From: Chloroherpetonaceae bacterium
GTDB lineage: Bacteria; Bacteroidota; Chlorobiia; Chlorobiales; Thermochlorobacteraceae
Length of the DNA: 64,000 bases
Assembly: GCA_046719715.1 (NCBI GenBank)
Contig: JBDNCJ010000002.1
Coordinates: 17,646 to 81,645 of the forward strand
Direction: 5' to 3'
Shown here: positions 1,513 through 5,507 of the stretch, piece after piece
Layout of the letters: the number at the start of each line of letters is the position of its first letter
Position numbering within the stretch: position 1 is the first letter of the stretch
The notes under the pieces: model-generated
Databases searched by the model: none
Seen by the model: only the letters and a program-made list of their open reading frames with translations
Told to the model about the DNA's origin: nothing
Translations under genes and position numbers: made by a program

Positions 1513-3621
1513 TTACGGGTTTTTGCCGTCCGCGCTCGATTCGGTTTTATCGGGCTGTTTGTATTTGGGGTCAAAGAGCTTGTTGTTCGCTAAATTCACA
1601 TCGGGCAGTTTTTTATCGGGATCTAATTCCACGCCGACAATTTTCTTTTCTGACCACACGGGCGCAATAAACTCATTACCTCGAAGCCAGATTTCAACGG
1701 GCAGTTTGCGTCGTTCCGTAGAGCCGTCTTCGTAGGTGATTTCCATTTCAACGGGCATGACCATCTCTTTGCGATTGACGAGGAAAATGCGGTTGTAGTA
1801 TTGGTCAAGCGAATCGAGCGTGTGGACGGAATCGACGGATTGGTCAAGTTGCGACGTCGTGTAGAACCAGCCGCGCCAAAACCACGCCAAGTCTTCGCCC
1901 GCTGCGTCGTCCATCGTTCTGAAAAAATCTTCCGGCGAAGGGTGTTTGTATTTCCAACGCCGAATGTATTCTTTGAACGCCGCATCGAAACGCTCTTCAC
2001 CCAAGACGACTTCGCGCAAGGCAACGAGTGCCGCCGCCGTTTTCGCATAAGCATTTTGACCGAGATTGCGAATCGCGTGTGGGTGCGTCATCAACGGTTG
2101 ATGCTCTTCGGAGCGCATATACGGCACAATGTCGCGCGCTTCGCCGCGTCGCGCCTTGCGTTCAGGATACTTTTCTTTTTCGCCGTAGTAGCAGATAAAC
2201 GAGTTCAACCCTTCATCGAGCCACGCATATCGTCGCTCATTATTCTGCACAATCATCGGAAACCACGTGTGCCCGACTTCGTGAAGCGTAACGGCAAAGA
2301 GCCGAAAATCGTTATACCGCTCCCGACAAAAAATCATCATCGGATATTCCATTCCGCCCGGCACCGAGCCATTGACGTTAATCATCGTGTTGTAGGGATA
2401 GGGAAACCATTTCTCGGAAAACTCTTTGAGCGAGAATCGAACATATTGCGTGGATTCTTTCCACATTTGTTGCCCTTCGACGGGGTAGAGCGATTGTGCC
2501 AAAATGCCGTTCCACTGCGCGGCGTCCCAAATGAAGGCGGCTGATGAGGCAAAGGCAAAATCGCGCACGTTGTCGGCTTTGTAGTGCCAGACAAGTTCGC
2601 CCGTTTGTTTCGGGCGTGTCCACGACGCGCCAACTTCATCGCGTCCGATAATCATGACTGTTTCATCGCTTTTAGCGGCTTTGGCTAATCGCTCGCGAAG
2701 CGTTGATGTTAAAACTTCATTCGGATTTTGAAGCGTGCCCGTCGCCAAACAAATGTGATTGGCTGGAACCGTGAGTTTCACATCAAACGAACCGTATTCG
2801 GTGTAGAACTCGCCTGCACCAAGATATTGGTCGGTGTTCCACCCCGAAAGGTCGTCATAAACGCACATTCTTGGATACCATTGCGCAATTTGATATACCC
2901 AGCCTTGCTTGCACTCTTCGCGTCCCATGCGACCTGTAAAGGGAATCGCAAACGACCACTCCATCTCGAGTTGCACCACGCCCCCATTTGGCACAAGTGG
3001 TTCGGGCAAGTCAATGCGCATCATCGTATCGTTGATTTTGAACTTGGCTTTCGATTTTGTCTTCTTTTGTGGCGCGCGTTTTCCTTTTTTGACGGGTTGC
3101 GTTTGCATTGTTATGACTTCGACATCAGTGATGTCCATTCCGCCATCAAATTCAGAAGAGCGGAAGAGCGACGGCTCGGTTGGGTCGTCGGCTTCTTTGA
3201 TAAGACGCGCACGCATTTTCGGATTGGACAGATTTTGGTCGAGCTGAACCCACACATAGTAAAGCGTATCGGGCGAGTTGTTGGTGTAGGTGATCGTTTC
3301 CATTCCAGACAGCACATGTTCAAGGGTGTCAATTTTTGCCGAAATGACATAGTCGGCGCGATTTTGCCAATACTGATGCGACGGCGCGCCCGACCCCGTT
3401 CGATACGGCGAAAGCACCCAATCGAATCGGCGAAACGTGGATTGATTTTCAAATGGCACACGTCTCCCCACAATTTGGATTGGCTCTATGACCGTGTCGG
3501 CAGAAAGTTCAAGGTTCATTTTATCCTCGTCCGTTGCCGTGTTGGACGACGCACATGCGGAAATAACTAAAAAGAAAAGAGCCATGCAGGCTTTTACAAG
3601 CCATTGAGATGTGATTTTCAT
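1513..3621 (-). CDS. M1 family zinc aminopeptidase, lipoprotein
   Basis: GGMEY exopeptidase motif, HEVGH...E (LDEG) zinc motif, lipobox ISA-C. Confidence 0.9.
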   Translation of the reverse strand: MKITSQWLVKACMALFFLVISACASSNTATDEDKMNLELSADTVIEPIQIVGRRVPFENQSTFRRFDWVLSPYRTGSGAPSHQYWQNRADYVISAKIDTLEHVLSGMETITYTNNSPDTLYYVWVQLDQNLSNPKMRARLIKEADDPTEPSLFRSSEFDGGMDITDVEVITMQTQPVKKGKRAPQKKTKSKAKFKINDTMMRIDLPEPLVPNGGVVQLEMEWSFAIPFTGRMGREECKQGWVYQIAQWYPRMCVYDDLSGWNTDQYLGAGEFYTEYGSFDVKLTVPANHICLATGTLQNPNEVLTSTLRERLAKAAKSDETVMIIGRDEVGASWTRPKQTGELVWHYKADNVRDFAFASSAAFIWDAAQWNGILAQSLYPVEGQQMWKESTQYVRFSLKEFSEKWFPYPYNTMINVNGSVPGGMEYPMMIFCRERYNDFRLFAVTLHEVGHTWFPMIVQNNERRYAWLDEGLNSFICYYGEKEKYPERKARRGEARDIVPYMRSEEHQPLMTHPHAIRNLGQNAYAKTAAALVALREVVLGEERFDAAFKEYIRRWKYKHPSPEDFFRTMDDAAGEDLAWFWRGWFYTTSQLDQSVDSVHTLDSLDQYYNRIFLVNRKEMVMPVEMEITYEDGSTERRKLPVEIWLRGNEFIAPVWSEKKIVGVELDPDKKLPDVNLANNKLFDPKYKQPDKTESSADGKNP

Positions 3622-3719
3622 GTAAGTGAATTTTGGAACACAAGAGATTGTTTTAATGAAACCAAAGTTATTGAAATTCGTGTGCTTTTTGTTAAGTTCG
3701 CTTCATCAAAATTGATGTT

Positions 3720-4094
3720 ATGCAAACACGCTTGCTCCATATTTTTCCGATTCTTTTTGCATTCGTGCTTTACACGATTCCGCTTTGCCAATGCGCGGAA
3801 ATGATAAAGGCAAAAGCGGCACCTTCGTGCTGTTCGGCATCAAGCCTAACGGAGTCAGGTGCGCATAAGGCTTGCACCGATGCCACAGAATGCTGCGCTG
3901 ACGGCATCAACGCGGAAAAAATGAAAACTGAAAAATCGTTTGAATCCGCACAAGTTTCGCTTTCTTCTCCTGCGCTGGTTTCAGTTATTGAGTTTCCTTC
4001 GCTTTTTGCTTCTACCCAATCGATTTCCTTTAACAACGCTTTCTCGGTACACTCTCCACCGACACAGGCTTTCTTGCAAGTGTTTTTGATTTAG
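3720..4094 (+). CDS. Cys-rich exported/leader protein with C-terminal SPP motif (DUF2946/HYC_CC_PP-like)
   Basis: 124 aa; N-terminal hydrophobic segment, CQC, CC and CC motifs, ends HSPPTQAFLQVFLI; first gene of a metal-related cluster. Confidence 0.65.
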   Translation: MQTRLLHIFPILFAFVLYTIPLCQCAEMIKAKAAPSCCSASSLTESGAHKACTDATECCADGINAEKMKTEKSFESAQVSLSSPALVSVIEFPSLFASTQSISFNNAFSVHSPPTQAFLQVFLI

Positions 4095-4162
4095 GATTTA
4101 CGGTGTTCTTTCGCTTGTCTGCGCATTGATTTTGAACATCGTAATTCTAAACTCAAACACTT
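4078..4162 (+). promoter_or_regulatory. Long mRNA hairpin linking the end of the leader ORF to the initiation region of the next gene
   Basis: AAGTGTTTTTGATTTAGGATTTACGGTGTTC (4078-4108) pairs, with bulges and wobbles, with GAACATCGTAATTCTAAACTCAAACACTT (4134-4162); the next ATG is at 4170. Confidence 0.6.
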
Positions 4163-4169
4163 TTTCATC

Positions 4170-4343
4170 ATGAAATCCATCATTCTTTTTTCGGCGATTT
4201 TATTCACGTTCAGTTTTGCACCGCAAAAGTCGGAAGTTTCCGAAGCCAAATCGTGCTGTGTGAATGCGTGTTGCACCACCTGCACATGCGGCGAGTGCAC
4301 CTCTTGTGCTACTTGCGCCGAGTGCACTTCGTGCTGTGAATAA
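4170..4343 (+). CDS. Small signal-peptide-bearing Cys-rich (metallothionein-like) peptide, absent from the ORF track
   Basis: Manual translation: MKSIILFSAILFTFSFAPQKSEVSEAKSCCVNACCTTCTCGECTSCATCAECTSCCE*; 57 aa, 12 Cys in residues 29-56. Confidence 0.8.
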   Translation: MKSIILFSAILFTFSFAPQKSEVSEAKSCCVNACCTTCTCGECTSCATCAECTSCCE

Positions 4344-4380
4344 TTCATTTTGAATTTTTCGCGCTGAACTTTATTTCTGC

Positions 4381-4412
4381 GAAAGCCTGTTTCCGAAGCG
4401 AAGCAGGCTTTC
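4381..4412 (+). terminator. Intergenic stem-loop (terminator or mRNA-stabilising hairpin)
   Basis: GAAAGCCTGTTTC-CGAAGC-GAAGCAGGCTTTC between the Cys peptide and YHS genes. Confidence 0.55.
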
Positions 4413-4431
4413 ACTTTAACTCAATCCAAAT

Positions 4432-4716
4432 ATGAAAACGCTTTCCATTTTATCATTGATGATTATCGTTTCACTTTCGGCTTGCCAGAAGAGCGAGCCA
4501 AAGCAAGAAGTTGCAAAACCCATGTTTAACGAAGTGTGTCCGATTTCAGGCGAACCCGTAAGCGCGAAGTCAAAAACGGTTGAACACGAGGGTAAAGTGT
4601 ATGGCTTTTGTTGCAACAGTTGCGAGCCGAAGTTCAAAGCCGACCCCGCCAAGTATTCTGCGAAGGTTAGTGCCGACGGCAAAGCCTTTCTCGGCGAAAA
4701 AGAACCTATGCACTAA
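4432..4716 (+). CDS. YHS-domain lipoprotein (metal-binding)
   Basis: Lipobox LSA-C; CPISG...YGFCCNSC...F..DP.KY YHS/TRASH pattern. Confidence 0.85.
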   Translation: MKTLSILSLMIIVSLSACQKSEPKQEVAKPMFNEVCPISGEPVSAKSKTVEHEGKVYGFCCNSCEPKFKADPAKYSAKVSADGKAFLGEKEPMH

Positions 4717-4730
4717 GTTTCCAAAAATAA

Positions 4731-5507
4731 ATGCTGATGATGACTGAACCCTTATCTCAAACGATTACAGAGTTTGCAGTCAGCGGCATGCACTGTCAAG
4801 GGTGTGTTCAATCGGTTGAATCGGCTCTTTCATCAGTGGAAGGGGTTGAATCGGTAAAGGTTTCACTGTTTCCAGCGAAAGCGGTGCTGGTGCTTAAAGG
4901 TGATGTGCCGCTCTCGACACTCAATCGTGCGTTGAAATCCGTCGGCGATTACACGCTTTCGGAGTGGAAAGGCGATGCCGATTCTGCTTTGCCTTTTTCG
5001 CTTCCTGTTGTCAGTGCGCCGATGACTTCATCGGTTGCGCCAACTTCAAACGCCCCCCGTTCAAAAGCGTTTTGGCTTGATGCGCCGAAGTGGAAACGCG
5101 CCTCGTTTAACACGCTCAACTGCTTGATTGGCTGCTCGATTGGCGATTTTGGATTTATCATTTATGCGCAAAGTGTCGGCTTGGCGTGGTCAATGTGGGC
5201 GATTATGGGCGTCGCGATTCTGTGCGGACTGACGACTTCCGTCATGCTTGAAACCGTGATTCTCAAAGTGCGAGAAGGTTTTTCTTGGTCGCTTGCCTTG
5301 CAGACGGCTTTCTCAATGAGTTTCCTCTCGATGCTTGCGATGGAAATTTCCGAAAATGCAACAGATTACTTGCTCACGGGCGGAACCGTCATGCCGCACG
5401 AGCCTTTCTATTGGATTGCATTGGGAATCGCCCTCATCGCAGGATTCCTTGTGCCGCTTCCCTACAATTATTGGAAACTCAAAAAATTCAACAAGTCTTG
5501 CCACTGA
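4731..5507 (+). CDS. HMA (CopZ-like) domain fused to DUF4396-like membrane domain
   Basis: GMHCQGC heavy-metal-binding motif; TLNCLIGCSIGD and Met-rich TM helices (MSFLSMLAMEI). Confidence 0.85.
   Translation: MLMMTEPLSQTITEFAVSGMHCQGCVQSVESALSSVEGVESVKVSLFPAKAVLVLKGDVPLSTLNRALKSVGDYTLSEWKGDADSALPFSLPVVSAPMTSSVAPTSNAPRSKAFWLDAPKWKRASFNTLNCLIGCSIGDFGFIIYAQSVGLAWSMWAIMGVAILCGLTTSVMLETVILKVREGFSWSLALQTAFSMSFLSMLAMEISENATDYLLTGGTVMPHEPFYWIALGIALIAGFLVPLPYNYWKLKKFNKSCH

Follow-up and report, generated by a model that had tools for sequence, protein, structure and literature searches.

A candidate metal-sensing leader with a conserved stop-to-start hairpin upstream of a Cys-rich peptide gene in Chlorobiales

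To our knowledge, CutF and CruR, two DUF2946 proteins of proteobacteria, are the only cases in which experiments have shown that a nascent exported chain senses metal. Here we analyze a stretch of 64,000 nucleotides (the window) from a Chloroherpetonaceae bacterium (assembly GCA_046719715.1, contig JBDNCJ010000002.1, positions 17,646 to 81,645 of the forward strand), in which a small open reading frame, ORF1, ends inside a long hairpin that reaches to a few nucleotides before the start of the next gene, ORF2. The ORF1 locus is probably a metal-responsive translation switch akin in its logic to CutF and CruR. More specifically, we assign a probability of roughly 60% to the reading that ORF1 is a metal-sensing leader which gates the translation of a secreted Cys-rich peptide (ORF2) in a locus that also contains a YHS gene and an HMA-DUF4396 gene.

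Among the closest known systems is CutF of Rhodobacter capsulatus, encoded in cutFOG. According to the accessible parts of PMC9973294 and of the preprint 10.1101/2025.02.05.636593, CutF resembles ORF1 in its length of less than 150 residues, its N-terminal export signal (in ORF1 a predicted one), the Cys motifs in the exported part, a PP within the final 15 residues, a next gene that follows in the same orientation after a short intergenic region, a stem-loop that shields the initiation region of this gene, and a locus of the copper type. ORF1 passes the 'CutF-like' filters on length, PP position, same strand and intergenic length as they are given in the accessible text of PMC9973294. In the same text, Bacteroidota account for 19% (40% when normalized) of 5,334 CutF-like entries, whose genes are there analyzed for intergenic lengths only and not for hairpins. 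The differences concern sequence as well as logic. CutF carries CxxxC and PPP and is assigned to DUF2946 or 'CutF-like', whereas ORF1 has CC and CxC motifs, an SPP followed by a 10-residue hydrophobic tail, and no match to DUF2946. Unlike in CutF, the hairpin at ORF1 masks a start without Shine-Dalgarno (SD) sequence or anti-SD pairing, and the target is a secreted Cys-rich peptide instead of a multicopper oxidase. Finally, copper-prolonged arrest of CutF melts the stem, as far as the accessible parts of PMC9973294 and the preprint 10.1101/2025.02.05.636593 describe it, whereas the stem of ORF1 spans its own stop codon and should remain closed when the ribosome is arrested at the PP.

CruR of Bordetella pertussis (bp2923, DUF2946) is, in the accessible parts of PMC9426467 and PMC12992588, likewise an upstream ORF with an export signal (in ORF1 a predicted one) and with a Cys motif whose distance from the C-terminal PP is constant (45 residues in CruR, 53 in ORF1). 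The spacing in DUF2946 is described as conserved at 45 residues, within one or two (PMC9426467, accessible part); an analogous Cys-to-PP ruler is present in the ORF1 clade, though its length differs from that of DUF2946. The accessible text of PMC9426467 proposes that copper relieves the arrest, and this is also the sign that we favor for ORF1. In contrast to ORF1, CruR has the motif RAPP three residues from the C-terminus, represses a TonB-dependent importer and, in the described part of the system, works via Rho-dependent termination in a GC-rich intergenic region of 162 nt, whereas ORF1 would work via a start-masking hairpin. Cu-related RAPP/RGPP upstream ORFs were not found in Bacteroidota by the survey in PMC12992588, as far as its accessible text goes.

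A further likeness exists to SecM-secA, VemP-secDF2 and MifM-yidC2, in which an exported arrest leader is combined with a stem-loop over the next start that is controlled by the position of the ribosome. Unlike ORF1 as we read it, these leaders sense translocation activity and not a ligand, and the arrested ribosome itself disrupts the stem. It is already known that metal loci can combine an exported Cys-rich leader ending in a PP motif with a stem-loop that masks the next start, and the CutF-like list includes many Bacteroidota. What is new is a Chlorobiales clade outside every library model, with its CC-53-PP ruler and its presumably gated product ORF2; new as well are a stop-spanning, SD-independent hairpin common with the loci of the NCBIfam family HYC_CC_PP (NF047658), and a distance from the putative pause site to the stem that implies a logic other than that of CutF.

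The putative leader gene, its hairpin and the presumably gated gene

The features at the center of this analysis are the following:

3720-4094, plus strand: ORF1, predicted exported Cys-rich leader of 124 aa; ATG start, TAG stop at 4092-4094
3741..3812, plus strand: predicted hydrophobic N-terminal segment, signal peptide or signal anchor; residues 8-31
3786..3794, plus strand: CxC motif (C23, C25) at the close of the hydrophobic segment; in 16/16 homologs
3828..3833, plus strand: first CC pair (C37 C38); in 16/16 homologs
3891..3896, plus strand: second CC pair (C58 C59), start of the 53-residue ruler to PP; in 16/16 homologs
4053..4061, plus strand: S112-P113-P114, candidate arrest site; Pro codons at 4056-4061, HSPP being codons 111-114
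4062..4094, plus strand: conserved C-terminal tail TQAFLQVFLI and TAG stop; conserved as peptide
4078..4108, plus strand: 5' arm of the hairpin; last 14 coding nt, stop codon and 14 nt beyond
4109..4133, plus strand: hairpin loop of 25 nt; sequence and length variable among orthologs
4134..4162, plus strand: 3' arm of the hairpin; positions -8 to -36 relative to the ORF2 ATG
4170-4343, plus strand: ORF2, predicted secreted Cys-rich peptide of 57 aa; signal peptide, then 14 Cys in 31 residues

An original prediction, made from the letters of the window, had named an export-like N-terminus, Cys pairs, an HSPP with its Pro codons at 4056-4061 and 11 codons to the stop, and a stem of about 28 bp (4078-4108 with 4134-4162) that ends 7 nt before an ATG. 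All of these are found at the coordinates it gave; the distance of 11 codons arises from ten sense codons after the second Pro, followed by the stop. According to RNAfold, the stem consists of 27 pairs, including two G-U pairs, with two small interruptions, and its last paired base (4162) lies 7 nt 5' of the ORF2 ATG at 4170. The minimum free energy of the fold 4040-4185 is -36.1 kcal/mol (z -4.68), and none of 200 dinucleotide shuffles is equally stable. The segment from the stop to the ATG has a z of -6.3; its ends are bridged by 26 pairs, versus a shuffle mean of 8.2. As a genome control, we sampled 45 out of 145 co-directional intergenic regions of 60-100 nt from the same genome, using approximate gene calls: the median z is -0.77, one region reaches z <= -4.5, and none has at least 20 bridging pairs. 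The element occurs once in the genome (other matches cover 14-25 nt at E >= 0.08), and the region 3500-4800 contains no Rfam family at E <= 1. At 60 C the hairpin is predicted to be still folded (-12 kcal/mol), which is relevant since the locus DNA is present in four DNA sequencing runs labeled hot springs metagenome, and the source may be among them.

The stem-loop over the ORF2 initiation region is conserved in orthologs. The comparison comprises seven distinct orthologous loci: the window, L022, L023, L024, L025, L026 and L005. The same stop-spanning stem is present in six of them, with z between -2.9 and -5.4, and four compensatory pairs were counted. L005, with 51% protein identity, has an unrelated stem of 11 bp instead, from 3 nt past the stop to 3 nt short of the ORF2 ATG. 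Throughout the seven loci, only 3-10 nt separate the end of the 3' arm from the ORF2 start, an arrangement that suggests the start region as the target. In the six loci with the common stem, its outer portion and the part with the stop codon are sequence-identical and hence uninformative. The distal stem compensates: ACGGUG/CAUCGU in the window corresponds to CGCGAG/CUCGC in L024 and to UAAG/CUUA in L026. For counting, a covariance model was built from four loci and then used to align six; this alignment replaced one by MAFFT, which misaligned the 3' arm of the intergenic region. In the six-locus alignment, 96.1% of the cells pair, versus 26-49% in controls with slid partners, and 4 out of 22 pairs are changed on both sides. 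The observed values were reached by 0/500 shuffles for four of five pairing measures, and by 6/500 for the remaining one, further pair types.

In none of the seven loci is the start of ORF2 preceded by an SD-like sequence. In the host genome (G000; 3.27 Mb, 133 contigs, 99.8% complete), 186 out of 1,817 gene calls (10%) have an SD-like tetramer at -18 to -4, versus 4% at a control position – a rough figure, with crude gene calls and approximated start codons, which suggests little use of SD sequences in this genome.

ORF1 itself is a real gene under purifying selection: between the seven distinct loci with DNA, dN/dS is 0.13-0.46 (20 of the 21 locus pairs gave values), while dS amounts to about 0.6-3.7 in 19 computable inter-lineage pairs and to 0.18 in the close pair L022/L023. 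The Pro, Phe and Leu codons of its tail differ synonymously among loci, which indicates that the tail is selected as a peptide. The final five codons (CAA GTG TTT TTG ATT) and the non-coding 3' arm, on the other hand, are nearly invariant despite saturated synonymous sites; the near-fixed nucleotides in these five codons indicate an additional constraint at the RNA level.

At the protein level, the N-terminus consists of a positively charged MQTR and a hydrophobic stretch of about 20 residues. AlphaFold predicts a helix for residues 8-31 alone (mean pLDDT 50, on a shallow alignment), and the lack of a stable fold beyond this helix fits a leader better than a folded protein. Among 16 homologs, the invariant or nearly invariant positions are Y18, P21, six Cys, the block AEKMxTEKSFES and the C-terminus SPPTQAFLQVFLI; C52 is not conserved. 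The PP is kept in 14 of these 16 close homologs as well as in 7/7 distant representatives; its loss in the other two close homologs does not agree with the stalling role proposed in the original prediction. Each of the 21 clade rows with a PP has 52-57 residues (53 in most) between the last CC and the C-terminal PP, even though the sequence of residues 78-110 shows little conservation. A linker that is fixed in length and free in sequence fits a nascent chain which reaches through the ribosomal tunnel and the translocon with the ribosome standing at the PP.

The clade of ORF1 is narrow. A word-indexed search returned 14 homologs with 56-99% identity, and when 1.84 billion representatives were searched exhaustively with a profile of the ORF1 alignment, no more than 9 matched at E <= 0.001, counting P0020 (1576 aa, 20 stretches). 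In a search of 41 genomes, nine were matched: G000 and four others of its genus at E <= 6e-24, one of the same family at 3e-8, and three marginally at E of about 0.005-0.01. Contig scans yielded three genome loci and four metagenome loci. The ORF1 and ORF2 proteins of the former are equal to those of L002, L003 and L004, and these are apparently the same places; three of the metagenome loci share one ORF1 protein, and L026 equals L027 across the stretch from ORF1 to YHS. The related records come from Chlorobiales, Chloroherpetonaceae and Candidatus Thermochlorobacteriaceae bacteria. In one further locus (L006 in genome G008, 1456-2235), an ORF1 homolog with 35% identity and the C-terminus SPPRTTVLII lies directly 5' of the YHS gene, and an ORF2 is absent.

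ORF2 is present in all seven orthologous loci, with 41-71 aa and 10 invariant Cys columns. An internal deletion in L026 takes away the end of the signal peptide, and L005 has a Cys-rich insertion of 10 residues. The peptide belongs to no family in Pfam or NCBIfam, the word-indexed search returned ORF2 alone, and the best score in the ESM Atlas is 0.77, which is below any useful level. The product is probably a metal-binding peptide and would be a candidate for a new periplasmic Cys-rich peptide of this kind.

Relation to DUF2946 and HYC_CC_PP

The original prediction likened ORF1 to upstream ORFs of the DUF2946 type, and this claim has to be abandoned. No Pfam family matches ORF1 at E <= 1, nor any of 16 clade members at E <= 10; the DUF2946 model itself (PF11162) has no match in G000 and exceeds its cut-off in 1 out of 151 genomes sampled from the phylum. 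Furthermore, ORF1 lacks the conserved CXXC motif of CruR and the CxxxC motif of CutF and has CC and CxC in their place, and it ends with HSPP plus 10 residues and not with RAPP (plus 3 residues in CruR) or PPP near the end. Together, these nulls, the Cys motifs and the C-terminus exclude membership in DUF2946. A 'CutF' that appears in a Bizionia paper is the E. coli NlpE and is unrelated.

The only family in the libraries that comes near is HYC_CC_PP. Its model matches 4 out of 16 clade members at E <= 1 (best 0.006) and, in the phylum, 44 out of 151 genomes at E <= 0.001, of which 39 are over the cut-off; a genome search found no match in G000 at E <= 0.001. Our literature search found no paper in which the name HYC_CC_PP is used, and the motif order given here is read from the family name and from the members examined, not from a curated description. 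Its proteins share with ORF1 a hydrophobic N-terminus with Cys right after it, CC pairs, a distance of 50-59 residues (measured from the last CC in nine proteins) to a PP, and a hydrophobic tail of 7-20 residues which often ends in FLI or FRI (e.g. QVFLI, VFRI). When the ORF1 clade is aligned with hhalign, the columns run from the CC motif to the C-terminus, with CC on CC and PP on PP. In place of HYC, ORF1 has Y18-x-x-P-x-C23-x-C25. According to these comparisons, ORF1 is a divergent relative or an analog of HYC_CC_PP and not a member – at most a distant relative.

What the two also share is a stop-to-start hairpin in front of metal-type genes. We folded nine HYC_CC_PP loci from five genera (L010-L014, L016, L018-L020) and considered 20 further ones (L047-L066), of which the 17 with an intergenic region of <= 150 nt were folded. 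In the first set, the segment from stop to ATG has z <= -3.5 in eight of nine loci, and an outer helix runs from the stop codon, or from just after it, to 3-10 nt before the next ATG. In the second set, 13 of the 17 loci have z <= -2 and 10 have z <= -3, and a spanning helix ends at most 19 nt from the ATG in 14. These counts include many genomes that are kin, and the background control was taken from another genome. The sequences of the stems vary between lineages. Genes 3' of HYC_CC_PP encode, as far as their N-terminal sequences reveal, TonB-dependent receptors, RND pumps of the CzcA/CusA type, and secreted HMA-domain proteins. The results suggest that the stop-to-start hairpin is a trait of the family in the wider sense, including HYC_CC_PP loci. 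Together with the ORF1 loci, they also suggest a Bacteroidota counterpart to DUF2946, unrelated to it in sequence or very distant, with its own ruler, pause motif and hairpin geometry, and without SD sequences.

Proposed mode of action and alternative explanations

The analysis shows the ORF and the selection on it, the motifs with their ruler, the hairpin with its conservation, and the gene context; from these we infer that ORF1 is exported, arrests the ribosome and senses metal, and in which direction it regulates. In the proposed mechanism, ORF1 would be translated and co-translationally exported as a sensor leader, with the end of its mRNA inside the long hairpin. As long as the hairpin is closed, ORF2 would be poorly initiated, with possible effects on the YHS and HMA-DUF4396 genes that follow it. 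A ribosome on the last codons and the stop of ORF1 would unwind 4078 to about 4105 and thereby free 4134-4162 and the ORF2 start region; this step follows from geometry alone. With the ribosome paused at the PP, the Cys motifs would be just out of the translocon, and metal binding or disulfide formation at these motifs could set the length of time for which the ribosome is held.

The arrested ribosome on CruR is described as holding its pair of Pro codons in the P site and the A site (PMC12992588, accessible part). By analogy, the P site in a paused ORF1 complex would be 4056-4058, and from the first Pro codon (4056) to the first stem pair (4078) there are 22 nt. Counted from the first base in the P site, a ribosome reportedly covers about 15-16 nt and unwinds about 11 nt, a finding ascribed to Takyar 2005. 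Its front would thus stand at about 4071 and some 6 nt short of the stem, so that an arrest at the PP should not melt it. Since the stem would be left closed by such an arrest, and its opening would take the release of the ribosome and the completion of ORF1, the logic of CutF, in which arrest opens the stem, is not directly transferable. In HYC_CC_PP loci with a PP plus 12-15 residues and a stem from the stop, the gap between pause and stem is even larger. Of the analogy to CutF and CruR in the original prediction, the architecture stands (a small, predicted exported ORF with Cys and PP, a hairpin over the initiation region, a metal-type locus), while the logic of CutF would not carry over directly, given the 22-nt gap.

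The sign we favor, which accords better with CruR than with CutF, is that the arrest would keep the hairpin closed (OFF), and release would drive the ribosome into the stem (ORF2 ON). Once metal is bound to the exported CC motifs, the ribosome would be set free, the hairpin opened and the Cys-rich peptide induced; such an induction would be a sensible answer to metal excess. The spacing between pause site and stem hence yields a clear prediction on the sign of regulation. A more far-reaching proposal, which we regard as possible but somewhat doubtful, is that Bacteroidota, including this Chlorobiales lineage, have a class of SD-independent metal-sensing leaders of their own. It would be characterized by a CC about 53 residues from the PP, a hydrophobic tail and a stop-to-start hairpin, with the pause as OFF and the metal-triggered release as ON, the reverse of CutF, and the gated ORF2 would be an undescribed secreted peptide of the metallothionein type. 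If confirmed, the system would help to explain translational switches in organisms with few SD-led genes.

A number of observations weigh against ORF1 as a metal-sensing leader with a conserved switch. As regards the arrest, SPP is not a strong arrest motif of the RAPP or PPP type, as such motifs are described in the accessible parts of PMC12992588 and the preprint 10.1101/2025.02.05.636593. Two of the 16 close homologs (P0006 and P0008) have a single Pro in place of PP, and P0008 is the protein of locus L025, where the hairpin is kept. In the wider family, the distance from PP to the stop ranges from 7 to 20 residues. Export of ORF1 is predicted solely from hydrophobicity, and the sequencing runs listed for the locus (four, all DNA) include no RNA run. 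As regards the hairpin, the orthologous loci come from close relatives and thus lack independence, 13 of the 22 stem pairs are invariant and thus uninformative, and pairs were counted in an alignment fitted to the structure, which favors pairing. The stem in L005 is statistically undistinctive, with z -1.45 in one fold and -2.1 in the fold from stop to ATG; no significant hairpin precedes the YHS gene in L006 (z -1.45, 0 bridging pairs); and the family-wide folds were started 15 nt before the stop, which favors a 5' arm near it. Finally, the homology to HYC_CC_PP is weak: NF047658 is the sole library match of ORF1 and scores 14.4 bits (E 0.039) versus a cut-off of 28, and hhalign of the ORF1 clade versus ten HYC_CC_PP proteins gives a probability of 50.5% (E 1.6e-4, 69 columns).

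Among the alternatives, constitutive translational coupling without sensing survives best, although we consider it unlikely. ORF1 would then be a working periplasmic or membrane-anchored metal-binding protein, and the hairpin would tie the translation of ORF2 to that of ORF1. The coupling as such follows from the geometry, with the 5' arm over the stop codon; PP is dispensable in the two homologs mentioned above, and the invariant Cys motifs and the EKMxTEKSFES block could have a function in the protein. An ORF1 without predicted fold is hard to reconcile with this explanation, and so is the constant CC-PP spacing (52-57) across a poorly conserved linker. Moreover, a C-terminus with PP plus tail is kept phylum-wide before unrelated metal genes, which would be needless for a mere partner of ORF2.

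It is improbable that the hairpin acts at the level of the transcript, be it that it terminates or attenuates transcription intrinsically ahead of ORF2 or that it protects from RNase or directs processing. A precedent exists in the known design of attenuation by a leader peptide whose hairpin lies near the stop, and a T-rich stretch follows the stem in the window (TTTTT at 4161-4165) and in L024 (CTTTTCT). A run of at least four T is found in only these 2/7 loci, however, which argues against a conserved intrinsic terminator, and the terminator scan made no call on the stem 4078-4162. The stem is AU-rich with a loop of 25-45 nt, and the position of the 3' arm end next to the ATG in 7/7 loci speaks against a role in the transcript as well.

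That the structure is a site in the DNA, for instance a metal regulator's operator or the remnant of a mobile element, or a mere chance feature, is highly improbable: a long inverted repeat within a metal locus might suggest it, but the repeat is single-copy in the genome, its 27-bp arms are set apart by 25-45 variable nt, the distal stem varies by compensatory pairs (L005 and L026 keep a stem and not its sequence), 0/200 shuffles are as stable, and the locus is without a regulator gene.

Neighboring genes and minor features

On the plus strand, the locus consists of four co-directional genes in the order ORF1, ORF2, YHS lipoprotein and HMA-DUF4396 membrane protein. The surrounding features are:

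1513-3621, minus strand: M1 peptidase gene, divergent, upstream of ORF1
3664..3698, plus strand: promoter-like block; TTGAAA at 3671-3676, 16-nt spacer, TAAGTT at 3693-3698; putative promoter function
4381-4412, plus strand: GC-rich hairpin of 13 bp (inverted repeat I10); one mismatch, 6-nt loop; 38 nt past the ORF2 stop
4432-4716, plus strand: YHS-domain lipoprotein gene; Pfam YHS at E 1.5e-7, above the cut-off
4731-5507, plus strand: gene of a membrane protein with HMA (CopZ-like) and DUF4396; Pfam HMA 3.9e-13, DUF4396 2.2e-40

The HMA-DUF4396 protein also has matches to NCBIfam domains of the CopZ type, every one of them under its cut-off. No regulator gene was seen in the locus among the ORFs and library matches, and no conserved palindrome for a regulator was seen upstream of ORF1 in the compared orthologous loci. 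The sequence AAAGTTATTG[A/C]AA (3664-3677) is common to the window, L022, L023 and L024, with a near match in L026, while L005 and L025 differ. The TTGAAA inside this sequence could be a -35 element; the consensus promoter scan did not call the block 3664..3698.

The terminator scan did not call the GC-rich hairpin at 4381-4412 either. A counterpart is present in L026, and the hairpin may act as a partial terminator or stabilizer that splits ORF1 and ORF2 from the YHS and HMA-DUF4396 genes. An antisense ORF of 107 aa (4091-4414) lies opposite the conserved ORF2 and is taken as a by-product of the sequence rich in Cys codons. In L024, an additional Cys-rich ORF of 74 aa (4020-4244; CPHC...CKQC...GDCCVFC) is located between the YHS gene and the HMA-DUF4396 gene.

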